From sequence record NC_007023.1: DNA of 64,000 nt. One strand, given 5' to 3'. The first letter of the stretch is position 1. The number at the start of each line of letters is the position of its first letter. The notes under the pieces were generated by a model. The model searched no databases, was not told where the DNA came from, and saw nothing but the letters and a program-made list of their open reading frames with translations. A program made the translations under genes and the position numbers. Below are positions 31,261 to 47,637 of this stretch, in pieces. The stretch is from Escherichia phage RB43.

Positions 31261-31599
31261 ATGAAAATCGTTCAGCGTAATATCAGCGAAGTTAGCCAGG
31301 AAGAAAAAGTTCAGATCCATTTCAAATTCAATGATCTGAAACGTGGTTATGCAGAAATTGCCCGTGTTCATAAGTTGGACAATGGCGACATTTATATGAT
31401 TGTCCAAGAAATTGAACGAATCCGCGCTTTCCGTGCCGAAAACCCGAAAGTAAAACGTGTTCTTCGTCGTGTGTATGTGAATAAACATCGTAAGGCTGCG
31501 AAACCAGTTAAACCAAAACGCGAACCGCGTCCAGACAACAAACGCAAAGCAATTAACGGTGCTATGGCGCTGGCTTTCCAGGAAGCAGGTTTAGTGTAA
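31261..31599 (+). CDS. hypothetical protein with basic C-terminus
   Basis: ATG 31261 with RBS AAGGAAAG; Lys/Arg-rich tail (KHRKAAKPVKPKREPRPDNKRK). Confidence 0.5.
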   Translation: MKIVQRNISEVSQEEKVQIHFKFNDLKRGYAEIARVHKLDNGDIYMIVQEIERIRAFRAENPKVKRVLRRVYVNKHRKAAKPVKPKREPRPDNKRKAINGAMALAFQEAGLV

Positions 31600-31608
31600 G
31601 GGGTTAAC

Positions 31609-32136: not shown

Positions 32137-32140
32137 TATT

Positions 32141-33184: not shown

Positions 33185-33322
33185 AACTGTTCTCGAAAAC
33201 GCAAAAACGGCTACCCTGATCGGTAGCCGTGAACCCCCCGAACGTATAGCAAACATCGCTATCAAGATCGGACGGCATTAAGTGATCGAGACATTTTAGC
33301 TTATTCTGGTGGTGCTCCTGGA

Positions 33323-33757
33323 ATGGATAGCCATTTCTTGTTTGACTACGCACCAGAAAGACGGCGCATAATTCTCCCTGAAAACGGTTTTAACGGGCTT
33401 TACTCGAATGGTATGGATATCATCGACTATAACGAGTTAGACACGTACAAAGCCGCTGACGAAGCGAGAAAGGTAGCTGGGAACTTCGATTACCAAAATG
33501 AATGGACACAAAGGCGTTATGCGAGAAATGCAGTTCAGATATTGCGCGAAAATTTAGACAGCCCGACTGACTTCGTGTTATTTTGGGCTATCGAAAAGGA
33601 TTTTTGTGTCAAGGGCGGTACGGCTATCGCAACACGCCTTGCACGATTATACGGTGTTCCCAGTTTCAACCTGTGGAAAGAAAACGTATTGAATGATGTT
33701 TGTGATACTTTGGGGATTAATATCAAACCTCCAACTTTGGATTTTCTCTGGTGCTAA
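33323..33757 (+). CDS. SLOG/DprA-like Rossmann-fold protein, 3' portion (conserved 5' part lies in another frame from ATG 33174)
   Basis: ORF from ATG 33323; same frame is open from 33233 (..LAYSGGAPGMDSH); ATG 33174 ORF (MNFKTVLENAKTATLIGSREPP...) ends 33281; together resemble GSR...SGGAxGxD pattern; assignment tentative. Confidence 0.4.
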   Translation: MDSHFLFDYAPERRRIILPENGFNGLYSNGMDIIDYNELDTYKAADEARKVAGNFDYQNEWTQRRYARNAVQILRENLDSPTDFVLFWAIEKDFCVKGGTAIATRLARLYGVPSFNLWKENVLNDVCDTLGINIKPPTLDFLWC

Positions 33758-33823
33758 CTCCCGAACAATCACGTAATTACGAACGCCTCTCAGTTGAAGA
33801 GGCACTTAAAAAGGTTAAGAACA

Positions 33824-34027
33824 ATGGTAGAGATCAACGGAATCGGGGTGAACCCGAACGCATTAATTTCAAAGAACGATCCTCGTTGCGGTCGTAGTCC
33901 TACGCTGGCAGAACGTGCGCGTAAGCTGGTAGAGGAAACAAACGGCAAGATGTTTGAAACATGCCGTGAAGAAATCACCCGCAACATTCTAAGTTTTCCA
34001 ACAAAACAATCATACACGTTGATATGA
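33824..34027 (+). CDS. hypothetical protein
   Basis: 67 aa from ATG 33824 (ORF track has upstream alternative start 33794). Confidence 0.4.
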   Translation: MVEINGIGVNPNALISKNDPRCGRSPTLAERARKLVEETNGKMFETCREEITRNILSFPTKQSYTLI

Positions 34028-34245
34028 AACGTTTTGTTGGTACGACGATGGGGCAAGAATGCACCAAACGTGCGTTTGATATGATCGGGGAATGGCTGAC
34101 CGAAGAAGGTTTAACCTATGAAACCCAAGCGGTAAGAACGTCTGCCGCAATACAATATGCAATGAGTAACCGCCGTATTTCAGGAAACGCCCCTGTAACT
34201 GAAAGAACTGGGTATAGCGAATACACGTATTTCATCACCTGGTAA
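34024..34245 (+). CDS. hypothetical protein
   Basis: 73 aa ORF with ATGA overlap to upstream ORF. Confidence 0.45.
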   Translation: MKRFVGTTMGQECTKRAFDMIGEWLTEEGLTYETQAVRTSAAIQYAMSNRRISGNAPVTERTGYSEYTYFITW

Positions 34246-34264
34246 AAAAGTTTGAAATAGTTGT

Positions 34265-34291
34265 TGACGGGAGTTCTGATTATGATAAGAT
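34265..34291 (+). promoter_or_regulatory. putative sigma70-type early promoter
   Basis: TTGACG, 15-nt spacer, TAAGAT; same TTCTGAT..TAAGAT architecture recurs at 45641-45668. Confidence 0.35.
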
Positions 34292-34332
34292 AGCTCCCGT
34301 AGACAAGACAACTAACCCAGAAGGAAAACATC

Positions 34333-34590
34333 ATGGAAATCAAATTAATCCCTACTTGCGCTGGTTACTGCTTGGCACTGAACGGTGTAGCAAACAACGG
34401 CAAAGGCTTACGGGCTAACGTTGAAGCAATGCTGAATGAACTGGCGTTGCGGAGTGAACCTGGGATGCAGTATGAGTATGATGACGTTGCAACCAGCGTT
34501 AAAATCTCTAATCTGGTGATGAATGGTGTTGACTGTGCGGGTGGTGGGATTGCTACATCGACTATGCAGACAATCGGGTTTTCTTACTGA
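34333..34590 (+). CDS. hypothetical protein
   Basis: 85 aa ORF with RBS AAGGAAAAC. Confidence 0.5.
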   Translation: MEIKLIPTCAGYCLALNGVANNGKGLRANVEAMLNELALRSEPGMQYEYDDVATSVKISNLVMNGVDCAGGGIATSTMQTIGFSY

Positions 34591-34619
34591 CCAGCAACTA
34601 AGGAATGTTATGAAAGATT

Positions 34620-35020
34620 ATATTTCAGAAGCAGAAGCGCTTGAAGAAAGCGGTTTTCAAGTCACCATTGACGATGAAGAAGATGGTGGCTATGATGGCG
34701 GTGTTATGTGGGGGCTTAAACGTCCACAACGTAAAACCCCTGTTCAATATTCTGATGGTTCAGTAAGATACGAAACGGTTGTTAAAGAAGTAAACGGGCG
34801 CGTCATTACGTCCGAACGGCAGAAGGACATTAAACAATTGTATGATGTCGCAAAAGCCGCTAAAGTAGGAACCGAGATTGTTTGTCCGGTGTGCAAAGAG
34901 AAACACAAGAAGACGACCTATCATAAGGTGTTCTGCTCTAATGGCAAAAAATCCAGGAAAGACTGCAAGAGTAAATACTGGAACACGATTCATCCTGAAC
35001 GTTTGGATCGTATCTTTTAA
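34620..35020 (+). CDS. hypothetical protein with CxxC motif
   Basis: 133 aa from ATG 34620 (RBS AAGGAA); CPVCKEK...C; ORF track has longer GTG/TTG version from 34523. Confidence 0.5.
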
Positions 35021-35042
35021 TCAAAACGTGGAGTACGTTTAA

Positions 35043-36473
35043 ATGCAAACTTTTAATGAACTGAATAGCATCATCACCTCAACCGATTCCTACAAAGTGT
35101 CTCACTGGATGCAGTATCCGCAAGGCACTGATGCAGCGATGTTCTATATCGAATCTCGCGGTGGTAAATTTGATGAAGTAGTAACCGCTGGCGTTAACTA
35201 CGTTGCGCGGGTTCTCGCTGAACCAATTACCATGAAGCAGGTTGAGTTAGCGCGGGTACTTTACCGTAAACACTTCGGAAAAGAGATCTTTAACTACGAA
35301 GGGTGGAAAAAGATTGCTGAACTGGGTTACACCCCTGTAATTTTCCGTGCGATCCCAGAAGGTACGGTGTTCCGGGAAAAATGCCGTGCGACTGTGTACG
35401 CCGAAAACGAATTCTCGTGGCTGGCTGGGTGGCTGGAGACAATGACGATTCGCGGTATTTGGTATCCGTCATCTGTAGCAACGCTATCGCGTGAGTGTAA
35501 AAAGGTTCTGGCACACTACCTGGATATGACTTCTGACCTTACTGGCGAAGCATATAACATCACACTGGGTACACGTCTGCATGATTTTGGGGCGCGGGGC
35601 GCGACCTCTGCTGAATCTGCTGGCATTGGTGGGCTGGCACACCTTTATAACTTCATCGGCACTGATACCGTAGAAGGGATGATTATGGCAATCAGCCTCT
35701 TTGCGGATTATCAAACACTGTTTGATGAAGTTGAAAACGTAGAAGTAGCTGGGGTTTCCATCCCTGCTCGTGAGCATTCAACTACGATTTCCTACGGTAA
35801 AGAAAACGAAGACGAAGCATATAAAAACAGCATTGAAATGTTCGGTGATGGGTTCTACGCTTGCGTATACGATTCATGGGACTACAAAGCCGCTGTTGAC
35901 CGGATCGATAGTTATAAAGAGAAAATCATTGCATCTGGCGGTGTGTTGGTAGTGCGTCCAGACTCAGGGGATATGATAGACAACATCATGTACACCTTGC
36001 GCAAACTGGGGCAAATCTTCGGATATACTGTCAACTCCAAAGGGTACAAAGTTCTTCATAACTCTGTTCGTATCATCCAGGGTGACGAGATCCACGGGCC
36101 TGAAACAATCAACCGTGTATTAAGCTGGATGGAAGCGAACAAATGGTCGAGCGAAAACATTGCGTTCGGTATGGGTGGCGGTTTGCTGCAAGAAGTTACC
36201 CGCGATACCCAGAAATATGCTGAAAAACTTTGCGCTATCCGTATCAACGGTGTGTGGAAAGGCGTTTACAAATGCCCGAAAGGTTCGGAATGGAAAAAGA
36301 GCAAGAAAGGTTTATTGATGACCATCACTAACGGGATGGAATTCAAGACAATCGATTCTCTCGAAGAATCTATTCCTGCTGGGTGGTTTGATGCGATGGT
36401 AACTTATTATGACAATGGTTATCTGAACAAAACTGACACTTTAGGGGAAATTCGTGAGCGTAGCCGGATTTAA
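35043..36473 (+). CDS. nadV: nicotinamide phosphoribosyltransferase (NadV/NAMPT family)
   Basis: 476 aa; N-terminal ...TDSYKVSHW...YPQGT..., GTRLHDFGARGATS, IRPDSGD, RIIQGDEI, FGMGGGLLQ motifs typical of NAMPT/NAPRTase family. Confidence 0.8.
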   Translation: MQTFNELNSIITSTDSYKVSHWMQYPQGTDAAMFYIESRGGKFDEVVTAGVNYVARVLAEPITMKQVELARVLYRKHFGKEIFNYEGWKKIAELGYTPVIFRAIPEGTVFREKCRATVYAENEFSWLAGWLETMTIRGIWYPSSVATLSRECKKVLAHYLDMTSDLTGEAYNITLGTRLHDFGARGATSAESAGIGGLAHLYNFIGTDTVEGMIMAISLFADYQTLFDEVENVEVAGVSIPAREHSTTISYGKENEDEAYKNSIEMFGDGFYACVYDSWDYKAAVDRIDSYKEKIIASGGVLVVRPDSGDMIDNIMYTLRKLGQIFGYTVNSKGYKVLHNSVRIIQGDEIHGPETINRVLSWMEANKWSSENIAFGMGGGLLQEVTRDTQKYAEKLCAIRINGVWKGVYKCPKGSEWKKSKKGLLMTITNGMEFKTIDSLEESIPAGWFDAMVTYYDNGYLNKTDTLGEIRERSRI

Positions 36474-36762
36474 TATCCGCGCCAACGATAACGGATCTGT
36501 AATCTTCTATAACAATCAGCCCCTTGTTGCTCGCAAGGGGCTTTTTTGTAAGTTAGTTGGGTATGGGTTCAAGTTGGAACAGGTGGATAATGCAACACTA
36601 AAAGAGATCGTGCGCATAGCCTATCTCCTGAAAGATAAGAAAGATGAACATAAGGCGGTTGCAATGCTGGAGAAATTGGGAGAAAATCATTGCTTCATCA
36701 TAAATCGTGGATACAAATACGATACAATCGCTTTATTTGAAAAAGGGCTTAGTGAACTATGA
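36454..36762 (+). CDS. hypothetical protein (GTG start)
   Basis: 102-aa ORF; SD AGGGGA 5 nt upstream of GTG; overlaps 3' end of nadV. Confidence 0.4.
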   Translation: MSVAGFNIRANDNGSVIFYNNQPLVARKGLFCKLVGYGFKLEQVDNATLKEIVRIAYLLKDKKDEHKAVAMLEKLGENHCFIINRGYKYDTIALFEKGLSEL

Positions 36763-37610
36763 ATTATTTGGGTGTGATACCTTACACGGGCAACAAACAG
36801 GATCTATTGCATAAGTTGTTTGAACTGTTTCCCGACCACCGACACTATCGTAGATTTGTCGATTGCTTCTGTGGTGGATTGAGCGTGTCGTTAAACGTTC
36901 CCAAACCAGTTCTAAGCAACGATTTCGATAAGACACTGATTGATGTATATAAGGTTCTTAAACGCGCTCCTGATCTCTCAGAGGTGCGAGAATTGATTGC
37001 TAAGAAGGGACTGAACAAAGAAAACAAAGATGCGTACCTGGCTTTTCGTGAAGAATACAACCAGCATCGCGATCCGCTGTGGCTGTACGTTCTGATCCTT
37101 CATTCATTCAGCAATGTCAACCGCACCAATGAGAAGGGAGAGTTTAACGCGCATTTTGGATACCGGACGATAAACGCATCAACGGTTAAGCGCTTTGAAC
37201 ACTTCAAGGCAAACGTAGCCGGAATTGAATTCACTTCTGGTTCTTACTCTGATATTGAAATCAGGGACACCGATTTTGTATACTGCGATCCTCCGTACCT
37301 GATTACGGATGCGGTGTATAATAAATTCTGGAATGCTGATCGCGAACGCGAGTTATACGCATTTCTTGACTCGCTTAACGAGCGGGGCATTTGGTTTGGA
37401 TTGTCCAACGTGACACACCATGCCGGAAAACAAAACGATATCCTGATTGAATGGATGAAGAAATACACCGTTCACAACCTGGATAAAAAGTATCTGTTAG
37501 GCCAGCATACAGAATCCTATGAGCAAAACAAAACTCAGGAGGTGTACGTGTGCAACTATCAGAAACGTGATGTAAATACATTCCCCTTAACACTCGATGA
37601 TTTAATGTAG
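36759..37610 (+). CDS. dam: DNA adenine methyltransferase (Dam)
   Basis: 283 aa; ...YTGNKQ.LL..L...FP....F.D.FCGGLSVSLNV..PVL.ND... and DPPY motif match T4 Dam. Confidence 0.9.
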   Translation: MNYLGVIPYTGNKQDLLHKLFELFPDHRHYRRFVDCFCGGLSVSLNVPKPVLSNDFDKTLIDVYKVLKRAPDLSEVRELIAKKGLNKENKDAYLAFREEYNQHRDPLWLYVLILHSFSNVNRTNEKGEFNAHFGYRTINASTVKRFEHFKANVAGIEFTSGSYSDIEIRDTDFVYCDPPYLITDAVYNKFWNADRERELYAFLDSLNERGIWFGLSNVTHHAGKQNDILIEWMKKYTVHNLDKKYLLGQHTESYEQNKTQEVYVCNYQKRDVNTFPLTLDDLM

Positions 37611-37616
37611 GTTAAC

Positions 37617-37889
37617 ATGTTTAAAATTTATGGTTATATTCCATCCGTTTATAATTGCGCTCCATGCCTGAACTGTAAGCGACTGCTGGACGCGAAAAAA
37701 CATGAATATGAATTCGTATCCGTTGCCGATTCCAAAGGCGAAGACGGGAAGCCGATCCTGAATGAATCGGTGATTGACGAACTCGAAGGACTGTTAGGAA
37801 CACGCCGGATGACCATGCCTCAGATTTTCCATGACGGGAAACACATTGGCGGGTTTGACCAACTTCGGGATTACGTTCGCACCCTGTGA
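37617..37889 (+). CDS. nrdC: thioredoxin/glutaredoxin NrdC-like
   Basis: 90 aa; MFKIYGY...C..C..AKRLL..KK..YEF...TMPQIF..G.HIGGFDQLR.Y matches T4 NrdC. Confidence 0.8.
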   Translation: MFKIYGYIPSVYNCAPCLNCKRLLDAKKHEYEFVSVADSKGEDGKPILNESVIDELEGLLGTRRMTMPQIFHDGKHIGGFDQLRDYVRTL

Positions 37890-37923
37890 TAAATAATGAC
37901 ACCTTACTTTGAATGGTGTTATT

Positions 37924-38406
37924 ATGCTGACGAAACGAATTACCAAAAAAGATTACCCCTCAATCAAGCAAGCTCTCTTTGACAAACAAGGGGGCTGCTG
38001 TGCTTTATGCAAGCGTCCTTTAGAGGGAGACATTGAAAAACATCACCTCGATCATGACCATGCTTTAGACGGCGAAAACGCCGGACGTGTGCGCGGCCTA
38101 CTGTGTAACCTATGCAACGGTACAGAAGGTATTGTAAAGCACAAATTTAACCGATCCGGTCTTGTGTCTCGTGATGTTGATTATATTGTCTGGTTGGAAA
38201 ACCTGCTTGCATATCTGAAACAAGATTATTCCGAAAACCGTATTCATGACAAATTCATACCAGATAAGGTAAAATGGTTTTCAAGACTTACCAAACCTGA
38301 TATGATTGCCGAAATGGTTTCTATGGGCTTCGAGTACGCCGAAAAAGACGAACGCAAAGCCTTAACCGCAAAATATAGAAAGCAATTAATGAAGGCAACG
38401 AAATGA
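37924..38406 (+). CDS. 49: endonuclease VII (gp49), Holliday-junction resolvase
   Basis: ...GGCCALCKRPL......HLDHDHAL.G..AG.VRGLLCNLCN..EG..KHKFNRSGL...VDY..WLENLL.YLK.DY..N.IH..F...K..FSRL matches T4 gp49; ORF track start 37909 is an alternative. Confidence 0.85.
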   Translation: MLTKRITKKDYPSIKQALFDKQGGCCALCKRPLEGDIEKHHLDHDHALDGENAGRVRGLLCNLCNGTEGIVKHKFNRSGLVSRDVDYIVWLENLLAYLKQDYSENRIHDKFIPDKVKWFSRLTKPDMIAEMVSMGFEYAEKDERKALTAKYRKQLMKATK

Positions 38407-38909
38407 ATGAAAAATATACGGAACTTGATGAACTTCTCAAGTGCGTAAGTGTAGACATTTGTAGCGGTGTTGTTACGTGGACTAAGCCAACAAACCGAAA
38501 AATTTGTATAGGCCAATCTGCTGGTGTTGTTGATAAAAACGGGTATACTGTTATCGGGTTCAAAGGGAAGAAATTCTTCCGACACCACGTTATATGGTAT
38601 GCGATTCATGGTACACTACCAGAAAAACCGTATGTTATTGATCATGTTCACGGAGTTGAACGTGGCGATGGGGTTTCGAACCTACAAAAGATTACACAAC
38701 AACAAAACATCATGAAGAAAAAGGTTCAGAGAAATAATAAATCTGGACATAAAGGCGTACATTGGTGCAACACATACAACAAATGGGTTGCAAAAATAAA
38801 GTTCAATGGAAAATCAATTTATATCGGAGAGTATGACGATTTGAATGATGCTATCAACGCAAGAATTCGCAAATCTCAAGAACTCTTTGGTGAGTTTGGA
38901 GAAATATAA
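38403..38909 (+). CDS. free-standing HNH homing endonuclease with AP2-type DNA-binding domain
   Basis: HHVIWYAIHGTLPEKPYVIDHVHGVERGDGVSNL (HNH) then GHKGVHWCNTYNKWVAKIKFNGKSIYIGEYDDLNDAINAR (AP2-like); inserted between gene 49 and nrdD. Confidence 0.75.
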   Translation: MNEKYTELDELLKCVSVDICSGVVTWTKPTNRKICIGQSAGVVDKNGYTVIGFKGKKFFRHHVIWYAIHGTLPEKPYVIDHVHGVERGDGVSNLQKITQQQNIMKKKVQRNNKSGHKGVHWCNTYNKWVAKIKFNGKSIYIGEYDDLNDAINARIRKSQELFGEFGEI

Positions 38910-41032
38910 TGCTTGTAGAAAAACGCGACGGCAAAACCGTTGATTTTGATAAAGAAAAAATCCGTATTGCTGTAGAAAAAGCTGGCGGGACTATGACGGA
39001 TGCTGATGCCGCAATCATGCTGGTTCAGTACAATCAGATCCGCGATGGTAGCGCAATGAAGATCGCCCGTATCCAGGAACTCGTTGAAGAATCCCTGATG
39101 AAAACGAACCCAGCGGTCGCCCGTGCATACATCGAATATCGTCACGATCGCGATATTGCCCGTGAACAGAAAAGTAAGCTGTTCAAAGATATCTCCGGTA
39201 TGGTGAATCTGTCCAACAAAGAGATCACCAACGAGAACGCGAACAAACACGCAAGGGTATTCCCGACACAGCGCAATTTGCTGGCGGGTATTGTAGCGAA
39301 GCATTTCGCCCGTAATCATATCCTTCCGAAACATATCGTAGAAGCGCATGACTCCGGCGACATCCACTATCATGATCTGGATTACAGCCCGTTCACGCCA
39401 TACACAAACTGCTGTCTGGTGGATTTGAAAGGTATGCTGGCTAATGGCTTCAAGATGGGTAACGCAGACATCGAACCCCCGAAATCAATCGGTGTTGCGA
39501 CTGCTCTTATGGCACAGATCACCGCACAGATTGCTTCTCACCAGTACGGCGGGACAACCTTTGCAAACGTGGATAAAGTGCTGGCTCCGTATGCAGAAAT
39601 GACATATGAAAAGCATGTTAAGGATGCTAAAAAGTATAAAATTTCGTTAGATCGTACATATGCGATGGAAAAGACTGAAAAAGATGTGTTTGATGCTTTC
39701 CAATCGTATGAATACGAAGTTAACACGCTGCATACTGCCAACGGACAAACACCTTTCGTTACTATTACTTTCGGTACTGGTACGGGAATGTTTGAACGGA
39801 TGATCCAGAAAGCTATTCTGAAAAACCGTATCCGTGGCCTGGGTAAAAAAGGTATTACTCCGGTATTCCCTAAACTGGTTATGTTCATGGAAAAAGGCAT
39901 TAACCTTGATCCAGAGGATCGCAACTATGACATCAAACAACTGGCTCTGGAATGCGCTTCAAAACGTATGTACCCAGATATCATTAGTGCATATAATAAC
40001 CGTCGCATCACTGGTTCTAGCGTTCCTGTATCTCCTATGGGTTGTCGCAGTTTCCTTAGTGTGTGGCATGATGATAACGGTAATGAAGTTCTGGATGGAC
40101 GTAATAACCTGGGTGTGGTGACAATCAACCTCCCGCGTATTGCTCTTGAAGCACAATCGCAGGAAGATGAAGACGCACATGACGCATTCTGGCGTATCCT
40201 TGATGAACGTCTGGAACTGTGCTTTGAAGCCCTGATGACTCGCATCGATAGCCTACGCGGTGTTAAAGCCAGTGTAGCCCCGATCCTGTACACGGAAGGT
40301 GCATTCGGTGTTCGTCTGAATCCTGATGATGAAATCCTGGAACTGTTCAAAAATGGGCGTAGCTCTATCAGTCTGGGTTATATCGGATTGCATGAAACGC
40401 TGTTAATGTTCGGCTCCGGTCAACATCCGTTCGATCGTATTGGCTCTCAAAATGTGGGTAAACTGATTCTGGAATATCTACGCGCCGCGACCGAGGCATG
40501 GAAAAAGAAAACTGGATTTGGTTTCAGTCTGTATTCAACCCCTGCCGAATCTCTCTGCCATCGCTTCTGTAAGCTGGACTTTGAGAAGTTCGGGAGTGTG
40601 AAAGGGATCACGGATAAAGGCTGGTACACAAACAGTTTCCATCTGGACGTAGACCGCACAGTGACACCGTTCGAGAAAATCGACTATGAAGCCGATTATC
40701 ATTACATTGCATCTGCTGGTCATATCAGTTATGTCGAATTCCCTGATATGAAAAACAACCTGCAAGCCCTGGAAAAAGTCTGGGATTATGCAATGGAAAA
40801 ACTGGACTATTTCGGAACTAACCTTCCGGTCGATAAGTGCTTTGAATGTGGTGCTGATGATGAATTCACTCCTACAGAAGACGGTTTCCACTGTAAACAT
40901 TGTGGTAATCACGATCCGGCAAAAATGAGCGTTACACGCCGTACATGCGGTTATCTGGGTGCTCCTGCTGTCCGTGGTTTCAACGAAGGTAAGAACAAAG
41001 AAATGATGCACCGCACTAAGCATCAAAATTAA
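38909..41032 (+). CDS. nrdD: anaerobic ribonucleoside-triphosphate reductase NrdD
   Basis: 707 aa; ATP-cone N-terminus (VEKRDGK.V.FD..KI), conserved catalytic blocks, C-terminal CxxC...CxxC zinc site and glycyl-radical region; uninterrupted (no intron). Confidence 0.92.
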   Translation: MLVEKRDGKTVDFDKEKIRIAVEKAGGTMTDADAAIMLVQYNQIRDGSAMKIARIQELVEESLMKTNPAVARAYIEYRHDRDIAREQKSKLFKDISGMVNLSNKEITNENANKHARVFPTQRNLLAGIVAKHFARNHILPKHIVEAHDSGDIHYHDLDYSPFTPYTNCCLVDLKGMLANGFKMGNADIEPPKSIGVATALMAQITAQIASHQYGGTTFANVDKVLAPYAEMTYEKHVKDAKKYKISLDRTYAMEKTEKDVFDAFQSYEYEVNTLHTANGQTPFVTITFGTGTGMFERMIQKAILKNRIRGLGKKGITPVFPKLVMFMEKGINLDPEDRNYDIKQLALECASKRMYPDIISAYNNRRITGSSVPVSPMGCRSFLSVWHDDNGNEVLDGRNNLGVVTINLPRIALEAQSQEDEDAHDAFWRILDERLELCFEALMTRIDSLRGVKASVAPILYTEGAFGVRLNPDDEILELFKNGRSSISLGYIGLHETLLMFGSGQHPFDRIGSQNVGKLILEYLRAATEAWKKKTGFGFSLYSTPAESLCHRFCKLDFEKFGSVKGITDKGWYTNSFHLDVDRTVTPFEKIDYEADYHYIASAGHISYVEFPDMKNNLQALEKVWDYAMEKLDYFGTNLPVDKCFECGADDEFTPTEDGFHCKHCGNHDPAKMSVTRRTCGYLGAPAVRGFNEGKNKEMMHRTKHQN

Positions 41033-41035
41033 TCA

Positions 41036-41069
41036 AAAAGCCCCTTGCGAAAGTGAGGGGCTTTTGTTA
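41036..41069 (+). terminator. rho-independent terminator after nrdD
   Basis: AGCCCCTTGCGAAAGTGAGGGGCT hairpin followed by TTTTG. Confidence 0.7.
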
Positions 41070-41103
41070 TATTACACATACCGAAACGATGGAGGATGAA
41101 AAG

Positions 41104-41337
41104 ATGAAACTGACAAGAAAAATGACTGATGTTGTTGGGTGTGCATTCGCTTTGGGTTATGAAGTGAAAAATCATCCTACTCGTATTGAGATCATCAACC
41201 CTATCAAGGGTCGCGCGGGGTTGGTTCTGTGTGAAGATGGTACAGCATATCGTAATGATGTTCAGTTGGATCTGGCTATCGCTCTGCGTACCGCAAAACA
41301 AATGAAAGACGTGCTTATAGCAGGTGCTAAAAAATAA
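41104..41337 (+). CDS. hypothetical protein
   Basis: 77 aa from ATG 41104 with RBS GGAGGA; ORF track lists longer TTG/GTG version from 41053. Confidence 0.5.
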   Translation: MKLTRKMTDVVGCAFALGYEVKNHPTRIEIINPIKGRAGLVLCEDGTAYRNDVQLDLAIALRTAKQMKDVLIAGAKK

Positions 41338-41347
41338 GGGTTATATT

Positions 41348-41674
41348 ATGTACTGGACAAAAGACAAATTCGTGTTTCGTGATGATGAAAGTTTTGGCAC
41401 GGTATACCGAAATTTAGCTTTGCGTGGTAGTGCTTTATCACCAAATCAACTATCGTCTGTTGTAATGCCGATAAAGGTTACTCACTGTGACCGTTTTGGT
41501 GTCAATGGTCTTGTTGATTCCGCTGGCACTTCCTGGTATTCGAACTGTTCTTATCTGTTAGACAACAACGATCGTGATCTCTTCAAGAAAGCTGTCCCAG
41601 TTGTTAAGAAGTCAAGAATCTGGATGTTCAAAACTTCTGGACTGTGCGCATCTTCTGGGACGAGTTTACGTTAA
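41348..41674 (+). CDS. hypothetical protein
   Basis: 108 aa from ATG 41348; 3' end overlaps next ORF by about 100 nt in a different frame. Confidence 0.45.
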   Translation: MYWTKDKFVFRDDESFGTVYRNLALRGSALSPNQLSSVVMPIKVTHCDRFGVNGLVDSAGTSWYSNCSYLLDNNDRDLFKKAVPVVKKSRIWMFKTSGLCASSGTSLR

Positions 41675-41825
41675 TGGAAAACTGGTCACAAAACAGGGTG
41701 ATCTTGAAAAATATCTTCGTAAACAACGTGAAGTTGCGTTGAAAGAAACAGAAAAAACAGTCAATCGGTTGACCAAATCGTTAGCCGAAGAAACAAAAAA
41801 TCTGAAACTGTTACGGGGTGAATGA
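41574..41825 (+). CDS. hypothetical protein (GTG start, no obvious RBS; may be continuation of previous ORF via +1 shift)
   Basis: 83-codon frame, protein-like from ...YVNGKLVTKQGDLEKYLRKQREV...; no in-frame ATG. Confidence 0.3.
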   Translation: MISSRKLSQLLRSQESGCSKLLDCAHLLGRVYVNGKLVTKQGDLEKYLRKQREVALKETEKTVNRLTKSLAEETKNLKLLRGE

Positions 41826-42064
41826 TGTTTCCATTAAAAGCGCGTGTTCGCAACAAAACAGGAACACAGGAATGGATGGAATGTATACGGGAAACAAAAC
41901 ATTTCTACATTTCTCAGGCAGTGGACAACAACGGAAAGAACATCCGTTATAATAAAGTTGGTGGTAAACGTGTGGGTATGGATCAATATCTCCAGGTTGG
42001 TACTGTTCGGCCTGTCAACGTTCCATTTGATTTAAGAATTCCTAACGGTAAACCTGTGATATGA
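41822..42064 (+). CDS. hypothetical protein
   Basis: 80 aa, ATGA overlaps with flanking ORFs. Confidence 0.5.
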   Translation: MMFPLKARVRNKTGTQEWMECIRETKHFYISQAVDNNGKNIRYNKVGGKRVGMDQYLQVGTVRPVNVPFDLRIPNGKPVI

Positions 42065-42570
42065 TCGGGAAAATCCTTGATATCCTGTTTCCCTCCCGTG
42101 TACGTGAGCGGGAGAAACAACAACAATTCGACGACATGTTAGAAGAAGTTATGTTCAATTCTTTTATGATGTGGAAGAAAAAACGCGAAGACGAGAAGCA
42201 CCCAAACGCACAAATGGCAAAGGGTGTTTCTAAATGCGCGGTTGGTCGTTACTGGGTTGAAAAAGATTATATTGATCTGATAGGCGCTATAGCTCCTGGG
42301 GTAACGCTGGAAGACTTTTCCCGTGCAACGGGGCGTTCGTATACTGGCTGCATCAATCGTCTGCGTATGCTGTCTATAGTGGTGCGTAGCAAGAATTACG
42401 GATATCGTGATGTTATCCGTCCGGTGATTCCGGTAAGCCGATTAAAAATTCACACGGCTAACGGAAAAAGACTTGACCTGACGGATGAAATGTGTAGAAT
42501 AGGCTATATCAGAGAGGGGAAAGTGTTAAAAGCCCCTGAATGGCTCACTAAACAATTTGAAATAAGGTAA
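42061..42570 (+). CDS. hypothetical protein
   Basis: 169 aa ORF, start overlapping previous stop. Confidence 0.5.
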   Translation: MIGKILDILFPSRVREREKQQQFDDMLEEVMFNSFMMWKKKREDEKHPNAQMAKGVSKCAVGRYWVEKDYIDLIGAIAPGVTLEDFSRATGRSYTGCINRLRMLSIVVRSKNYGYRDVIRPVIPVSRLKIHTANGKRLDLTDEMCRIGYIREGKVLKAPEWLTKQFEIR

Positions 42571-42574
42571 TCAC

Positions 42575-43167
42575 ATGATTAAGAAAATATTTTCGTTCCT
42601 CAACAACAAAGTAGAAACCGTCATCGAGCAAAACACCTCCCCAGAGGACGCATGGCGTAGCGCTGCACGTATCCTGATCAAGAGATTGACCGTCTGCAAC
42701 ATACCCGCATCACGGCTGCTCATGAGATCGCGAAACTAAGCAAAAAAGTTGTTGAGCACAAAGCTCTGCATGAAAGCAAAGAAGCAGAAATCAAAAAACT
42801 GCTGGCTGCTTCTCAGGAAGTTTCAAACAGTCATTACATTCTGGCACTGCAACACCGCAATATCTGGCAGGGGTTGAAAGAAAAGATCAATGAACTGGCA
42901 GAAATGAACAAACAGATCGATCTGTCTGTTGTTGAACTCGATAAAAAACTGGCTGATGTCAAAATGAACCTGGAAATTATCGAACTGAACAAACAGACTG
43001 AAAGCCTGGGTCTGACTGTGCCGGAAGATGTGATTGCAAGCGTGGGTCATACCTCCGTGAACGTCGATACTATCGTAACGAAGATTGATGTTCTGCTGGG
43101 TGGTAAGAACGCCGCCTCCGTGACTTCCGCTGATGTAAGTGCATACATCGAAGCCCTGAAAGCATAA
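42575..43167 (+). pseudogene. coiled-coil protein gene with apparent -1 frameshift about 35 codons in (5' part 42575-42739 in one frame, remainder open 42661-43167 in the -1 frame)
   Basis: ATG 42575 ORF stops at 42739; -1 frame has no start until TTG 42874 yet encodes protein-like helix ...QEIDRLQHTRITAAHEIAKLSKKVVEH... from 42661. Confidence 0.4.
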
Positions 43168-43173
43168 TGAGGA

Positions 43174-43193
43174 AGGGGCGCAAGCCCCTTTTT
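43174..43193 (+). terminator. rho-independent terminator
   Basis: AGGGGCGCAAGCCCCT hairpin followed by TTTTT. Confidence 0.65.
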
Positions 43194-43197
43194 GCCT

Positions 43198-43395
43198 ATG
43201 TATTATATTGAGCGTGATGAATTCGATAATTACTTTGTTGTTGATACTGTCCGTATGATTCATGAACCTCTGCCGTTGACTTGGTACTATTTGACCGAAT
43301 CTAAAAGGAAGAGATCGCGAATCAAGTTTACAGAGATGCGCTGTATGCGAAAACCGATATCAAAAGCGCGGCAATACAATCCAAATGTGAATTGA
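43198..43395 (+). CDS. hypothetical protein
   Basis: 65 aa from ATG 43198. Confidence 0.4.
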   Translation: MYYIERDEFDNYFVVDTVRMIHEPLPLTWYYLTESKRKRSRIKFTEMRCMRKPISKARQYNPNVN

Positions 43396-44117
43396 TGAAA
43401 GCCCAAACAACAATCAATGTTAGTAGACTTCTTGTTGATGGCAATCAACCGTTTGGTTATAATTGTATAGAAGATGCTTATACAAAAGAGGATGAAAAAA
43501 TGATGTGGGAACCTGGATTATCTGAACCGAAAAAGAAATTGTCCTATTCTTCTTGGAAAGAAAAGTACAAAGAACCTTTACAACACCTTCCGTTCAAAGA
43601 AAAGATCTTTGAGTTGCTTAATCCACATACGTATTCTTCTTCGTCATGGGTGTATGAAGGTCCGATCCTCGTCGGTGGATTTCTGGGGTATGTTGTTGAA
43701 ACATATAAATTGAAAGATTCTCTTGATGCTATCATGAGTTCTCCGTACATTGAAGATGTTAGTATTCCATACATCGCTACATCACAATACAGCGCACCGG
43801 GTAATATATCTTCGGATCGTTTGCAAGTTATCGCCTCTGATAATAAGTTTAAGTTTTCTGATGTATCGAGAGGTAGCAGAACTGTACTGATTGCTCTTGA
43901 CATAACAACTTCTGATCAGGACAAAGTAAACCTTATCATTGCATGTGATAGTGTAACTGACGTTACTCAATATTTTGGCGATAATTTCGAACGCAGACTG
44001 AAAGCAAAACAGCTTGAAAAGTTCATTCATAGCTGTAAAAAGAACGTGATGGAAAAATATGATCCGTCACTATCATACACGAAAATTGATGATGACCTGG
44101 TAGGTGAATTATGTTAA
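43395..44117 (+). CDS. hypothetical protein (noticeably AT-rich relative to neighbours)
   Basis: 240 aa from ATG 43395; Lys/Ser-rich; composition differs from flanking genes. Confidence 0.5.
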   Translation: MKAQTTINVSRLLVDGNQPFGYNCIEDAYTKEDEKMMWEPGLSEPKKKLSYSSWKEKYKEPLQHLPFKEKIFELLNPHTYSSSSWVYEGPILVGGFLGYVVETYKLKDSLDAIMSSPYIEDVSIPYIATSQYSAPGNISSDRLQVIASDNKFKFSDVSRGSRTVLIALDITTSDQDKVNLIIACDSVTDVTQYFGDNFERRLKAKQLEKFIHSCKKNVMEKYDPSLSYTKIDDDLVGELC

Positions 44118-44392
44118 TGAATAGTGCTCAATGCAAAGCCCTGAACTTTTTGATCCATGAACTGATTGAATGCGACATTCCTTTTGAGTTCGTTGATCCA
44201 ATCAATTCAGAACACCGCGTTTCTCTTTTCTGGGCTTCTGGTGATAGCAGTATCGACGCGGTGAATAACATCGTTGAACGCGCACAGAAGGATAATGTTA
44301 TTGTGATGATTGGTAGCGTTAACGCCTCCACCTGGAACAATGCTGATGCGTATTTCATCGGATACAAAAAACCGTTGACAGTGAAAGCATGA
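44111..44392 (+). CDS. hypothetical protein
   Basis: 93 aa ORF overlapping previous stop. Confidence 0.5.
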   Translation: MLMNSAQCKALNFLIHELIECDIPFEFVDPINSEHRVSLFWASGDSSIDAVNNIVERAQKDNVIVMIGSVNASTWNNADAYFIGYKKPLTVKA

Positions 44393-44435
44393 TCGCGTAA
44401 TATGCCCCTGTAGACAACAATATAGGGGCTAAATC

Positions 44436-44627
44436 ATGAAAATCAAAAATACTGCTACTGAAAATCTTTGCAACGAAATCGCTGCGACCTACTGGAAAGA
44501 AGGTCATCCAAAGGCAATGAAGGATTTTCAAAAGTGGTGTGACACCCAGAAATTATCAAAATGGGAATACATCGTAATCGTGGAACGGATCAGAGAACTG
44601 ATCCTTGATAAGAAAGGTATAAAATGA
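44436..44627 (+). CDS. hypothetical protein
   Basis: 63 aa ORF preceded by a GC hairpin (44404-44431). Confidence 0.45.
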   Translation: MKIKNTATENLCNEIAATYWKEGHPKAMKDFQKWCDTQKLSKWEYIVIVERIRELILDKKGIK

Positions 44628-45154
44628 TTCAGCTTACATCATACACCAACGCGATCAACAGCCTGTTCCCAGAAGGGACAGAAGCACGGCTTAATTTACA
44701 GGCTGCTGTGATCAAAAACATCGTTGATAGCGTTGTCGGTAAGAAGGTGACGGAAGAAATCGATAACTGTATTGTCACCCATGTTAGCGCGATGATGCCA
44801 CCAAAGCATGAGATCGAAAAGATTGTTCAAAATCAATTTGCCGATTACATTCAGAAACGCTACACATACAGCAATGTGTTTGATGCTAATTACAGTGGCA
44901 TTCGTCAGATTAAAGACGTGATCACCGAAAACGTTAAACAGCAATGCGCTAACCTGATTGAATCTATCAAACTTGATGCGATCGACAGCGCAAGCAAAAA
45001 CCTCAAAGAAGGCGAAGAAGCGTTTATTGCTCGTGTAACCAAAAATCTAGAAGTGACGGTTCGTAAAGAAATCATCGCTCGCGTGAACACCCAGTTCCCG
45101 CAAATCATCGACGAAGCAATCAAAGCCCGTCTGTTCCCAGAGGATAAAGGCTGA
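44624..45154 (+). CDS. hypothetical protein
   Basis: 176 aa ORF, ATGA overlaps on both sides. Confidence 0.5.
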   Translation: MIQLTSYTNAINSLFPEGTEARLNLQAAVIKNIVDSVVGKKVTEEIDNCIVTHVSAMMPPKHEIEKIVQNQFADYIQKRYTYSNVFDANYSGIRQIKDVITENVKQQCANLIESIKLDAIDSASKNLKEGEEAFIARVTKNLEVTVRKEIIARVNTQFPQIIDEAIKARLFPEDKG

Positions 45155-45600
45155 TGAACTTTGACCGCATCTATAACATGGATGTGGTCAACGGTAAAGG
45201 AATCCGTGTGGTGTTGTTTGTAACCGGATGCAATCATAAGTGTGATGGTTGCTACAACAAAAGCACATGGAATCCACGCAACGGTAAACCGTATACCGAA
45301 GAGACTGAAAACGAGTTGATCAGACTCCTTTCAAATCCTCATGTGGACGGATTGACGCTTACAGGTGGCGATCCGTTTTACCGCACCAATCATCCTGTAC
45401 TGTTAAAACTGCTCCAGCGCGTCCGTAACGAGTTGCCTGGTAAGAATGTATGGGTTTGGACGGGGTACACCCTCGAAGCCTTACAGAGTGATACAGAACG
45501 TTGTAAGCTACTTCCTTTTATCGATGTTCTGATCGATGGGAAGTATGAAAAGATTTACCGACTAAGAAACCGTTTCGCGGTTCGGACAATCAGCGATTGA
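45154..45600 (+). CDS. nrdG: anaerobic ribonucleotide reductase activating protein NrdG (radical SAM)
   Basis: 148 aa; ...DRIY..D.VNG.G.RVVLFVTGC.HKC.GCYN.STWN.RNG......LTLTGGDP...WTGY...IDGKYEK... matches T4 NrdG with CxxxCxxC cluster motif. Confidence 0.9.
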   Translation: MNFDRIYNMDVVNGKGIRVVLFVTGCNHKCDGCYNKSTWNPRNGKPYTEETENELIRLLSNPHVDGLTLTGGDPFYRTNHPVLLKLLQRVRNELPGKNVWVWTGYTLEALQSDTERCKLLPFIDVLIDGKYEKIYRLRNRFAVRTISD

Positions 45601-45640
45601 TTGAGTTTCAAAAGGATTCAATCGAAATTAAAAATATCGC

Positions 45641-45668
45641 TTGACCTGGTTGGTGATTCTGATAAGAT
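45641..45668 (+). promoter_or_regulatory. putative sigma70-type early promoter
   Basis: TTGACC, 16-nt spacer, TAAGAT; upstream of ATG 45710. Confidence 0.4.
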
Positions 45669-45709
45669 GTACCTCGTAACAAAACATAAACTAATTGAGA
45701 GATAATATT

Positions 45710-46636
45710 ATGATCCTGAATTTCAAAACCCGTAAAGAAGCCCGTGAATACTGCTGGAAATGGGGCATTCCCCTGAAAAGCATCACCAAAACCGCTAACA
45801 GTTCAAATCTTCCGTGGCGCGTGACTACCGAAGAAACCATGTTTAAAACTGGTCGTGATTATGAACTGGTTGATGTTGAAGGGTTTACCAATAACGGCAA
45901 AAACAAAGCCAACGTTACCCAGGCAAAACAGATCAAACAACACCTGAACGGTGTGATCACTATCATCAGTAAAGACGGCGACAAGTTCGAATTCAAATCG
46001 CCTGAATGCGTAGTGATGGACATCGTGCGTCCGTGGGAAGCGGTATTCTTCAAAGAGGTCAAACCGACCGTCAATGCGAAACCACGTAGCGCTAAACCTG
46101 CACCTGTTCAAGCTGACACGGTTGATGCGGTAGTTGATGATCTGGATGCGGCGCTGGATGGGGGCGTAAACCTCGCACCTGTTGAAGCGGTAGCACAGGA
46201 AGCATGGCCTACCCTCTTTGTGTGCAACATCCCGTATGTTCTGATTGATGAAGCGGGTTTCATTGCTGCACATGGCGCAAATAAAACAATCGTTGATTTC
46301 ATGAAAGAAAATAACGGTGTTTTGACATTTGAATGTGTTGATTCCGATGGTGATGCTACTATCAAAACATTCAAGCGCAATATTCCGATGGTGATGCACA
46401 GCGAACGTAAATATTTCCGCGAACTGGGTACTGGTAAAGTTCCTGCTCCGGCTGTACAGGTTGTTGATGTAACCGAAGAAGTTAACAAGAACCTTCATGA
46501 ACGTAAGATCATTGAAGCTGCACAGAAAGTTGAAGACGCGTTAGCAGAACATCAAAAAGCGATCGTAGTCGTACAACAAGCCGCTCGTGCTGTTCGCGAA
46601 GCTGCACAAGAACTTGCGCTCCTGTCTCGTAAGTAA
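45710..46636 (+). CDS. hypothetical protein
   Basis: 308 aa from ATG 45710; followed by hairpin terminator. Confidence 0.55.
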   Translation: MILNFKTRKEAREYCWKWGIPLKSITKTANSSNLPWRVTTEETMFKTGRDYELVDVEGFTNNGKNKANVTQAKQIKQHLNGVITIISKDGDKFEFKSPECVVMDIVRPWEAVFFKEVKPTVNAKPRSAKPAPVQADTVDAVVDDLDAALDGGVNLAPVEAVAQEAWPTLFVCNIPYVLIDEAGFIAAHGANKTIVDFMKENNGVLTFECVDSDGDATIKTFKRNIPMVMHSERKYFRELGTGKVPAPAVQVVDVTEEVNKNLHERKIIEAAQKVEDALAEHQKAIVVVQQAARAVREAAQELALLSRK

Positions 46637-46644
46637 TACAATTT

Positions 46645-46674
46645 GGGGGTGCTGAAAAGCATCCCCTTTTTATT
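46645..46674 (+). terminator. rho-independent terminator
   Basis: GGGGTGCTGAAAAGCATCCCC hairpin followed by TTTTTATTT. Confidence 0.65.
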
Positions 46675-46685
46675 TGAGGTATATT

Positions 46686-47399
46686 ATGGAATTGTTAGCT
46701 GGAAAAACTTACGGGTTGACCGTATCCCCAGAAGTATTTGCAGAGAAAACCTGGAAAACTGGTATCGCTGCAATCATTCGTAACAAAGGTTACATTCTCA
46801 TTGACCGTACATCCATCGGTGAATTCGAAGATAAAGCGTTTGTGCTGGATGGTGAATTCGAATACGAAATCCCACAATCCGAATGGAAATGGTTTAAAGA
46901 AGTATCGCCGGAAGATGGTGAATTCGTCGAGAAAGAACCGGAAGTTAAATCCGACACCAAAGAAATGAACGGTTCTATTGCTCAGGACATAACTAAACTG
47001 GACATTCCAAACTACACATTTAAAGCTGATGGTGTCGGTACGTTTGAAATTAAACCATATAACCCGTATAAGAATCTGGATATTCAGATCGCGTTCGGTA
47101 AGTCTCTCGAAGAGATTCGTGTTGTTCCCGATCCGTGCGACAAATCAGGTGAATATTTGCGTTTCGCGTTGCAACACCTTTTCAATGGTGGTAGCATCTA
47201 TTACATCGATATGGAAAAATCTATCGATATGCAGGAAGAAAAGATTGCTGAACTGTTCAATCTGCATAACCGATTGGAAGCAGTCGAAAACATCGAAAAA
47301 CTGTTAGGTAAAGAGAAAGCAAGGATCTTGGAAGACCTCAAGCCATACGGAAAGAAAAATGAAAGTAGAAATTTACGGAATTCCCGAAAACATTCATAA
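46686..47399 (+). CDS. hypothetical protein
   Basis: 237 aa from ATG 46686. Confidence 0.5.
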   Translation: MELLAGKTYGLTVSPEVFAEKTWKTGIAAIIRNKGYILIDRTSIGEFEDKAFVLDGEFEYEIPQSEWKWFKEVSPEDGEFVEKEPEVKSDTKEMNGSIAQDITKLDIPNYTFKADGVGTFEIKPYNPYKNLDIQIAFGKSLEEIRVVPDPCDKSGEYLRFALQHLFNGGSIYYIDMEKSIDMQEEKIAELFNLHNRLEAVENIEKLLGKEKARILEDLKPYGKKNESRNLRNSRKHS

Positions 47400-47637
47400 G
47401 TGTTATGGATGTATCGAGGCACAAAAGCTACTTAACGAAAAAGGGATAGAATATCATTTTTATCCCGTTCTGAAAGAAGCAAAAAATGATTTAGGCTTTG
47501 AATACGATCGACCACGTATCGAAGAGTTAGCAAAACGGGCACGACAACGCAGTTTGGCGTTCCAGTATCCGAGAATTTTTGTCGATAATGTTCTTATCGG
47601 CGGTTATATGCAACTGAAACAACTTATTGGTGACTAA
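47359..47637 (+). CDS. glutaredoxin-like protein (NrdH/Grx family)
   Basis: 92 aa; MKVEIYG.P.N..KCYGC..A..LL...GIEY......RIFVDNVLIGGY..L... has CxxC and Grx-like fold signature. Confidence 0.65.
   Translation: MKVEIYGIPENIHKCYGCIEAQKLLNEKGIEYHFYPVLKEAKNDLGFEYDRPRIEELAKRARQRSLAFQYPRIFVDNVLIGGYMQLKQLIGD

Follow-up and report, generated by a model that had tools for sequence, protein, structure and literature searches.

A probable free-standing HNH-AP2 homing endonuclease gene, apparently imported with flanking sequence, at the gene 49/nrdD junction of Escherichia phage RB43

A stretch of 64,000 nucleotides from Escherichia phage RB43 (record NC_007023.1), hereafter the window, was analysed around the junction between gene 49, which encodes recombination endonuclease VII, and nrdD, which encodes the large subunit of the anaerobic ribonucleotide reductase. 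The open reading frame (ORF) at this junction, 38403-38909, was interpreted as a functional, free-standing homing endonuclease gene (HEG) of the HNH-AP2 type, carried as a promoter-less cassette within the dam-nrdC-49-nrdD transcription unit. This reading, taken together with the account of its history, its target and the nrdD-nrdG interval that follows, was given a probability of roughly 80%. With a 10-kb query around the locus, the full-length match to Enterobacteria phage RB43 isolate RB43-GVA reached 99.8% identity; Buttiauxella phage GuL6 followed at 95%, and some 170 further phages of the Pseudotevenvirus/Slopekvirus type (Citrobacter, Enterobacter, Cronobacter and Klebsiella phages) at about 85%. 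GuL6 was the closest relative of RB43 in the collection used, being 98-100% identical over most of the 11-kb region. The presence of the HEG was counted across 175 related phage records, while gene content between nrdD and nrdG was compared in RB43 and 11 relatives (12 genomes). The features on which the argument depends were these:

37924-38406, forward strand: gene 49, recombination endonuclease VII (Pfam Endonuclease_7 and Endonuc-dimeris; start as annotated in RB43-GVA)
38392-38406, forward strand: last 15 nt of gene 49, AAGGCAACGAAATGA, a conserved junction that gives a Shine-Dalgarno-like AAGG and an ATG to the next gene
38403-38909, forward strand: HNH-AP2 homing endonuclease gene, 168 amino acids (Pfam, PHROG 99)
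38580-38708, forward strand: HNH_3 domain of the HEG, residues 60-102 (Pfam)
38742-38861, forward strand: AP2-fold domain of the HEG, residues 114-153 (sub-threshold in Pfam; AlphaFold and Foldseek)
38898-38911, forward strand: GGAG Shine-Dalgarno sequence (38898-38901) in the 3' end of the HEG, 7 nt 5' of the nrdD ATG, with the TAATG overlap (direct sequence reading)
38909-41032, forward strand: nrdD, anaerobic ribonucleotide reductase large subunit, 707 amino acids (Pfam NRDD 1-562/562, ATP-cone, Gly_radical)
38204/38215 to 39784/39799, no strand: putative imported (co-converted) tract of about 1.58 kb (mismatch profiles against IME-CF2 and GuL6)

An earlier note on this DNA had described an HNH endonuclease with an AP2-type DNA-binding domain at 38403-38909, and this identification was borne out. 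The protein matched Pfam HNH_3 (PF13392) with 29.6 bits, against a cut-off of 24.8, and PHROG 99 ('HNH endonuclease') at 3.7e-52. In an alignment of 62 similarly sized homologues, H81 and N93 were invariant while D80, L94 and N102 were at least 90% conserved; all of these are present in the RB43 protein, the motif being the D-H...N...N form of HNH, intact (D80/H81/N93/N102). The same alignment revealed a family signature, NNxSGxKGV...KW...G...A, in the C-terminal half. An AlphaFold (AF2) model built on the 62-member alignment had a predicted local distance difference test score (pLDDT) of 94.1, and its C-terminal part comprised strands at 119-122, 127-134 and 137-144 followed by a helix at 147-165, which is the AP2/ERF fold of a three-stranded sheet and C-terminal helix. 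Comparison of this part by Foldseek returned AtERF1 (1gcc; template modelling score 0.69 on the target, root-mean-square deviation 1.3 A over 52 columns, probability 1.00), as well as the AP2 domains of TEM1 and WRINKLED1. The top match for the N-terminal two-thirds of the model was I-HmuI (1u3e; probability 1.00, 96 aligned columns, 25% identity). Two results count against the domain assignment: the match to Pfam AP2 (PF00847; residues 114-153) scored 21.2 bits (E = 3.6e-4), under the cut-off of 33.3, and Foldseek E-values were only 3e-3 to 7e-2 (i.e., above 1e-3) despite probabilities of about 1.0. Although the AP2 sequence score misses the Pfam cut-off, the HNH and AP2 assignment appears to hold at the level of the modelled fold.

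The family is very large, with 80,300 cluster representatives at E <= 1e-3 in an exhaustive search, whereas a word-indexed homologue search returned six matches only. A sequence search of the PDB produced noise only, and the structural matches came from the fold search. The earlier note had called this the second HNH-AP2 endonuclease of the window; however, neither tblastn nor the family hidden Markov model, applied to all six-frame ORFs, found another copy in the 64 kb, and the gene is single here. Between RB43 and phage vB_CRKPVQ_22 (VQ22) the HEG differed at 20 codons, 13 of them synonymously, and the ratio of non-synonymous to synonymous substitution (dN/dS) was 0.13, which indicates that the ORF is under purifying selection. 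Its G-C content was 36-40%, compared with 43-50% for nrdD.

The distribution of the HEG was sporadic. It occurred in 9 of the 175 records (seven phages), always at the gene 49/nrdD junction, and its copies were 96-100% identical while the backbones were about 85% identical. Carriers comprised RB43 (two isolates), IME-CF2, EC-W2, EC-F2, CPRSA, CPRSB and vB_CRKPVQ_22; two metagenome contigs displayed the same order of gene 49, HEG and nrdD. In GuL6 the HEG was absent and the gene 49 stop codon directly overlapped the nrdD start (GAAATGAAAGTAGAAAA). The same empty junction was seen in Miller, CfP1, Lw1, GAP161, Kp_GWPR59 and EkoM5VN. The sporadic distribution, the precise empty site and a patch resembling co-conversion support the view that the HEG behaves as a mobile element.

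This patch was delimited by mismatch profiles. RB43 and IME-CF2 differed at 68 positions in 37600-38203, at just 12 in the 1595 nt of 38204-39798, and at more than 50 in 39799-40400; outside the tract the mismatch was about 10-11%. The comparison with GuL6 gave the reciprocal pattern, with approximately 1% mismatch up to the insertion, approximately 15% across 38914-39784 and approximately 1% beyond. Together, the reciprocal profiles place the crossovers at 38203-38215 and 39784-39799, and the tract contains about 195 bp of the 3' end of gene 49, the HEG itself and about 880 bp of the 5' end of nrdD. On this evidence, RB43 is a GuL6-like genome with a patch of about 1.58 kb that is IME-CF2-like. 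Within the patch, the region 39400-39790 was identical to Miller and CfP1, both of which lack the HEG, and this identity points to a Miller-lineage phage as the donor to RB43. IME-CF2 and Miller differed only in a shorter patch, extending up to about 39400, which was Enterobacter-phage-like. Nested tracts of this kind are the expectation for serial homing with co-conversion, and the tract in RB43 fits homing.

The sequence of events was probably as follows. An IME-CF2-like phage would have acquired the HEG and about 0.5 kb from an Enterobacter-phage-like donor; later, an IME-CF2-like donor of the Miller lineage would have passed the HEG, with about 195 bp upstream and about 880 bp of nrdD, to the GuL6-like ancestor of RB43. 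By analogy with the Mob and Seg enzymes of T4, the endonuclease would nick or cut the endonuclease-free allele near the gene 49/nrdD junction during mixed infection, and recombinational repair off the HEG-carrying genome would copy in the HEG along with flanking DNA. The import of the HEG into RB43, with about 1 kb of neighbouring DNA, looks recent.

Alternatively, the HEG could be inert and carried as a passenger, or could have been domesticated as a DNA-binding protein, and the 1.58-kb patch could be the result of ordinary homologous recombination in which no endonuclease took part. Certain observations lean this way and therefore weigh against an active enzyme. RB43 and GuL6 also differ by exchanged patches that contain no HEG within the same 11 kb (41800-42150 and 46100-46400, where identity was 70-88% or the ORF was absent), and such patches show that ordinary recombination could also yield a tract like this one. 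The searchable literature yielded no biochemical data on the RB43 protein, neither cleavage nor inheritance experiments, and its activity, target and mode of action (nick versus cut) are deductions from sequence; nor did it yield a report of cleavage by any HNH-AP2 enzyme encoded by a phage. However, the catalytic D-H...N...N residues are intact, dN/dS is low, near-identical copies occupy the same junction in at least three backbones, each with a patch of identity anchored at the HEG, and the closest relative, GuL6, has a clean empty site. An inert passenger is thus distinctly improbable, and the HEG is treated below as an active homing endonuclease gene.

The anatomy of the junction suggests how the cassette fits into its operon. 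The start and stop codon overlaps with both neighbours that the earlier note had reported were exact when read from the sequence: the HEG ATG (38403-38405) overlaps the gene 49 stop codon TGA (38404-38406) as ATGA, while the HEG stop codon TAA (38907-38909) overlaps the nrdD ATG (38909-38911) as TAATG. The HEG uses the ATG that serves nrdD in empty-site phages, where nrdD relies on the AAGG...ATGA junction of gene 49. Judging from the ATGA overlap, the HEG would be translated at a low level through coupling to gene 49, and it would bring its own GGAG ribosome-binding site and TAATG for nrdD, so that nrdD expression would be kept. T4-type late promoters (TATAAATA) were absent from 36-47 kb, and a scan for sigma-70-like promoters was not above shuffled sequences (27 sites compared with 21.8 +/- 4.8), with no promoter of its own evident for the HEG. 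nrdD was uninterrupted, as had been claimed, with a contiguous match to the NRDD profile (1-562/562) and no intron. Additionally, there was no Rfam match (E <= 0.1) in 36000-47500 to an intron, a riboswitch or any other RNA family.

The likely target of the enzyme was addressed by comparing five HEG-bearing alleles (four closely related, plus VQ22) with eight HEG-free alleles. Over the first 1.2 kb of nrdD, the only fixed difference between the two groups was codon 2 (AAA to CTT or CGT), at the junction; VQ22 also differs at codon 2. The HEG-free phages Miller, GAP161, Kp_GWPR59 and EkoM5VN had nrdD 5' sequences 95-100% identical to the HEG-bearing allele. Because only the insertion and codon 2 separate the two kinds of allele, a target at the junction is favoured; it is concluded with moderate confidence that the recognition site most likely spans the gene 49/nrdD junction, so that the insertion divides it.

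A target at the junction would be atypical, given that free-standing HEGs of T4 usually cut away from their insertion sites. The known examples typically cleave hundreds to thousands of base pairs off the insertion site (PMC2988022), which counts against the junction, as does the strong asymmetry of the tract, reaching far deeper into nrdD than into gene 49; the break could lie inside nrdD. By this alternative, an active enzyme cleaves some way off, within nrdD, like T4 Seg and Mob enzymes, and HEG-bearing genomes are immune through nrdD polymorphisms. Four synonymous positions (39175, 39325, 39352 and 39358) were candidates for such immunity and did separate the alleles when four HEG-free genomes were used, but they vanished when eight were used. 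The close likeness of the four HEG-free phages named above to the HEG-bearing allele argues against the alternative also, and the junction codon 2 alone stays fixed.

Two sharp allele classes of the NrdD N-terminus were apparent at 38969-39089, about 120 nt in the ATP-cone region. GuL6 and Lw1 share a divergent allele, 50-62% identical to the common allele, while all other sampled phages except VQ22, whether HEG-bearing or HEG-free, were 93-100% identical to RB43. A divergent block in a GuL6-type recipient would push resolution downstream and could account for the long rightward tract, and the asymmetry can be explained without a distant cut. Cleavage inside nrdD is possible but doubtful on these grounds, and the junction is retained as the probable target.

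It was the 5' side of nrdD, and not the nrdD-nrdG interval, that formed the most variable single junction in the sample. An ORF of 327 nt (ORF327; for example in Klebsiella phage HMGUkp1, L013:2745-3071) occupies the gene 49/nrdD junction in 73 related records, with identity of 99% or more in 56; it encodes 108 amino acids of PHROG 22516, function unknown, and lacks any Pfam match. The 15 nt that end gene 49, AAGGCAACGAAATGA, recur at the 3' end of ORF327; the cassette is consequently flanked by direct repeats and the coupling junction for nrdD is regenerated. In RB16, leE, Cronuts, KLB1/KLB21, KP13MC5-1 and CPRSA/B, gene 49 is itself replaced by a GIY-YIG-type ORF of 359 amino acids (RB16, L021:2276-3355; CPRSA, L009:1324-2178), a replacement of endonuclease VII noted earlier by Petrov et al. 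2010 as RB16ORF270c (PMC2993671). This substitute also ends in AAGGCAA(C/T)GAAATGA, the 15-mer being the common 3' end of gene 49, ORF327 and the GIY-YIG ORF in the relatives. CPRSA has a stack of GIY-YIG, ORF327 and HNH-AP2 genes 5' of nrdD. A more speculative extension, offered tentatively, is that the enzyme may recognise the gene 49/nrdD junction itself, its own insertion destroying the site as with an intron, and that the 15-mer may serve as a portable docking and translational-coupling module by which cassettes are swapped or stacked 5' of nrdD, CPRSA being an example.

Upstream of gene 49, the transcription unit includes two genes:

36759-37610, forward strand: dam (gene order)
37617-37889, forward strand: nrdC-like redoxin gene (gene order)

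Several relatives have an N4-cytosine DNA methyltransferase gene directly 5' of dam (L007, L013, L014 and L015, each at 263-1102). It is missing from RB43, GuL6 and the Citrobacter phages, and represents a further presence/absence cassette of the same operon.

The earlier note had regarded the region downstream of nrdD as an insertion hotspot, in which about ten small ORFs (41104-45154), two of them possibly frameshifted and one AT-rich, had split nrdD from its activase gene nrdG. A separation of about 4.1 kb was confirmed, nrdG starting at 45154 and the spacer measuring 4125 nt in RB43-GVA, and the AT-rich gene was also real (ORF6, 35-39% G-C). However, the interval contained nine genes, which appear in the window as about twelve ORF pieces. 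The features were as follows:

41036-41065, forward strand: intrinsic terminator hairpin, a 13-bp stem then UUUUGUUAU, 4 nt after the nrdD stop (terminator scan)
41104-41337, forward strand: ORF1, 77 amino acids, PHROG 12911, facultative cassette
41348-41825, forward strand: ORF2, 159 amino acids when intact, PHROG 8646, broken in the window
41825-42064, forward strand: ORF3, 79 amino acids, PHROG 6990, facultative, absent from GuL6 and Lw1
42061-42570, forward strand: ORF4, 169 amino acids, PHROG 10107
42575-43167, forward strand: ORF5, 197 amino acids when intact, PHROG 1203, T4 e.6 homologue according to annotations in relatives, broken in the window
43198-44117, forward strand: ORF6, 306 amino acids when intact, PHROG 10543, AT-rich, broken in the window
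44117-44392, forward strand: ORF7, 91 amino acids, PHROG 7412
44436-44627, forward strand: ORF8, 63 amino acids, PHROG 5072
44624-45154, forward strand: ORF9, 176 amino acids, PHROG 3806, facultative cassette
45154-45644, forward strand: nrdG, activase, 163 amino acids when intact (Fer4_12 covered 1-137/137 only in the corrected sequence)

The terminator was strong (-21 kcal/mol, z = -5.07), and the annotations of CfP1 and Miller each include one at this position. Once the sequence was corrected, all nine interval genes gave full-length PHROG matches, every family being of 'unknown function'. For the function of these genes no Pfam match above threshold was obtained, and PADLOC gave a weak match of ORF9 to PbeC (E = 1.2e-5) but otherwise sub-threshold noise. 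ORF6 was the fastest-evolving gene of the interval, with 40-58% amino acid identity to relatives compared with 83-96% for neighbouring genes, and its family, of 9 clusters, occurs in these phages only; modelling of its product by AF2 from 10 homologues gave an unusable structure (pLDDT 61, residues 54-132 disordered).

When the interval was compared across relatives, as the earlier note had proposed, the outcome that the note had named as refuting its reading was largely obtained: the spacing was kept, though orthologues were not present for every ORF. The spacer was 3.2-4.1 kb in all 12 genus members examined, and longest in RB43 because this phage has all three facultative ORFs (ORF1, ORF3 and ORF9). 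ORF5, ORF6, ORF7 and ORF8 were found in 11 of 11 relatives, ORF2 and ORF4 in seven, ORF9 in seven and ORF3 in five, while ORF1 was shared with GuL6 only. Homologues of the three facultative ORFs occurred in 108 (ORF1), 36 (ORF3) and 30 (ORF9) phage records. In four of the 11 relatives, ORF2 to ORF4 were replaced by a Seg-like HEG directly 3' of nrdD (partial GIY-YIG, NUMOD3 and an I-TevI DNA-binding domain). Full-length copies of this gene (for example EC-W2, L007:5415-6266) occurred in 24 records from Klebsiella, Enterobacter, Cronobacter and Escherichia phages, and in 23 of these the identity was 99% or more. RB43 does not have it; the equivalent position lies just after 41065.

These results bear on whether foreign ORFs, about ten in number, recently split a contiguous nrdDG unit. 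In phages nrdD and nrdG are usually adjacent (PMC3653736), and in T4 the order is gene 49, nrdD (with the I-TevII intron), mobC and nrdG, nrdD and nrdG being parted by the HEG mobC alone, with overlapping ends. The exchangeable cassettes, among which the Seg-like HEG belongs, and the greater length of the RB43 spacer would likewise suit a hotspot, and some cassette turnover is evident. However, no contiguous nrdDG unit was encountered: nine genes and a strong terminator intervene in RB43, and the same separation exists in all 11 relatives. The spacer is conserved in 12 of 12 genomes, every one contains ORF5 to ORF8 and most contain ORF2 and ORF4; each of the nine genes falls into an established phage protein family; and the annotation of ORF5 as a T4 e.6 homologue suggests relocated T4-type content rather than foreign DNA. 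The conserved spacer and core genes indicate a split ancestral to RB43-, RB16- and KP15-type phages, with cassette turnover since. The separation predates the genus, the 'recent' element of the hotspot proposal is largely refuted, and the proposal as a whole is unlikely. The nrdD-nrdG separation is therefore unusual for phages generally but an ancestral trait of this lineage, with a conserved core and a few exchangeable cassettes.

The suspicion of frameshifts in the earlier note proved well founded, but it had recognised two possible cases where three interval genes are broken (ORF2, ORF5 and ORF6) and nrdG is truncated too. Compared with RB43-GVA, the window has one A missing at each of about 41605 and 41629 (both ORF2), 42679 (ORF5), 43302 (ORF6) and 45547 (nrdG); BLAST comparison showed that the extra base is present at each of the five sites in every alignable relative. 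The omission at 45547 replaces the last 30 or so residues of NrdG and creates a false stop at 45600 (148 amino acids). The finding of the earlier note ended at 45600 because of this artefact; the intact frame ends at 45644.

Across the whole 64 kb there were 23 single-base indels relative to RB43-GVA, i.e., the five described here and 18 elsewhere. Substitutions numbered 7 outside the region of about 11 kb and about 16 within it. The further indels lay at 12993-13059, 21825, 30393-35386 and 54790-62700, and included compensated triplets at 12993/12999/13059 (in the tail-sheath gene), 35368/35375/35386 and 56542/56557/56577; the pattern points to a systematic difference in base calling between the two records of RB43.

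The frameshifts in ORF2, ORF5, ORF6 and nrdG could conceivably be real, either as pseudogenisation during laboratory passage or as programmed or transcriptional slippage at A-runs. All five consist of a single A lost within a run of A, nrdG and the small ORFs are likely to be dispensable under aerobic conditions, and different laboratory lines underlie the window and RB43-GVA. It cannot be proven which RB43 record errs at the five sites, and this uncertainty weighs against the correction adopted here. However, the A-runs are just 3-5 nt long, shorter than known slippage sites; the many single-base indels with few substitutions, and the compensated triplets, are the signature of base-calling error; and every alignable relative sides with RB43-GVA at all five sites. 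Genuine frameshifts are accordingly a poor explanation with little probability, and the five omissions very probably reflect errors in one record, most likely in the older of the two, rather than biology.

Two other differences between the RB43 records were noted. The BLAST alignment to RB43-GVA is interrupted at 25240-25404, where the subject coordinates overlap (25630 versus 25533); this indicates a difference in length or repeat-copy number of about 100-260 bp. At the boundary of ORF8 and ORF9 (44556-44642) there were six substitutions in 87 nt, against almost none in the remainder of the window; a small recombination patch or a local cluster of errors could be responsible.

The HNH-AP2 class of homing endonucleases was reportedly described by Magnani and co-workers in 2004; its members RB49ORF040c and RB43ORF027c have the same two-domain architecture as the RB43 HEG, and nothing essential differs. 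The RB43 genome has been published. Nolan et al. 2006 drew attention to AP2-HNH elements in both RB43 and RB49 (PMC1524935), and Petrov et al. 2010 (Table 5) credited RB43 with three HNH-AP2 HEGs plus a mob-like one, and RB16 with six of the HNH-AP2 type (PMC2993671). The present gene is one of these listed members, and its counterpart is annotated in relatives as 'putative homing endonuclease RB16 6'. The free-standing HEGs of T4 lack promoters, overlap upstream genes, undergo low-level coupled translation and spread by double-strand-break repair with co-conversion; the T4 mob genes are inherited with flanking markers, the HNH Mob enzymes and I-HmuI nick one strand, and nrdD and nrdG are known to attract seg and mob endonucleases (PMC2988022).

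A close parallel is T4 MobE, an HNH enzyme encoded between nrdA and nrdB; like the RB43 HEG, its gene is free-standing, promoter-less and placed between conserved genes of nucleotide metabolism, and its start overlaps the upstream stop codon, as UAAUGA in mobE and ATGA in RB43. The RB43 HEG appears to act in the manner of MobE or mobC; however, it is not a member of the mob family, since it belongs to a different HNH subfamily (PF13392/PHROG 99, compared with PF01844/PHROG 655 for mobC), and it appears to differ from T4 mob in having an AP2-fold DNA-binding module and a likely target at the junction rather than at a distance. According to Sandegren et al. 2005, as cited in PMC2988022, mobC and SegH are HEGs between nrdD and nrdG in T-even phages. 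The RB43 HEG is also tied to the anaerobic reductase genes, but lies 5' of nrdD and belongs to another family, and the nrdD-nrdG interval of RB43 contains no HEG, unlike that position in T4. I-HmuI of Bacillus phage SPO1 resembles the RB43 protein in having an N-terminal beta-sheet region that contacts DNA followed by the HNH motif; however, it is intron-encoded and ends in a helix-turn-helix, whereas the RB43 HEG is free-standing and ends in AP2. T4 I-TevII, of the GIY-YIG type, is another selfish endonuclease associated with nrdD, but resides in a group I intron of nrdD, while the nrdD of RB43 is intron-less.

The biology of the RB43 HEG is of a known kind and for the most part known in its details as well, and the current understanding of homing endonucleases and of anaerobic ribonucleotide reductase is unchanged. 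What the analysis adds are the empty sites, the nested co-conversion tracts with narrow breakpoints, the anatomy of the junction and the frameshift correction. For annotators there is a caution, in that the broken ORFs and short nrdG of the RB43 record are very probably errors, while the nrdD-nrdG separation is a trait of the lineage and not damage. For the study of phage homing, the locus is a clean natural example, in which a homing chain (from Enterobacter-phage-like to Miller-like to GuL6-like genomes, giving RB43) can be reconstructed from sequence with breakpoints of about 12-15 bp, and the empty gene 49/nrdD junction offers a definite DNA substrate with which a phage HNH-AP2 enzyme could be tested biochemically for the first time.

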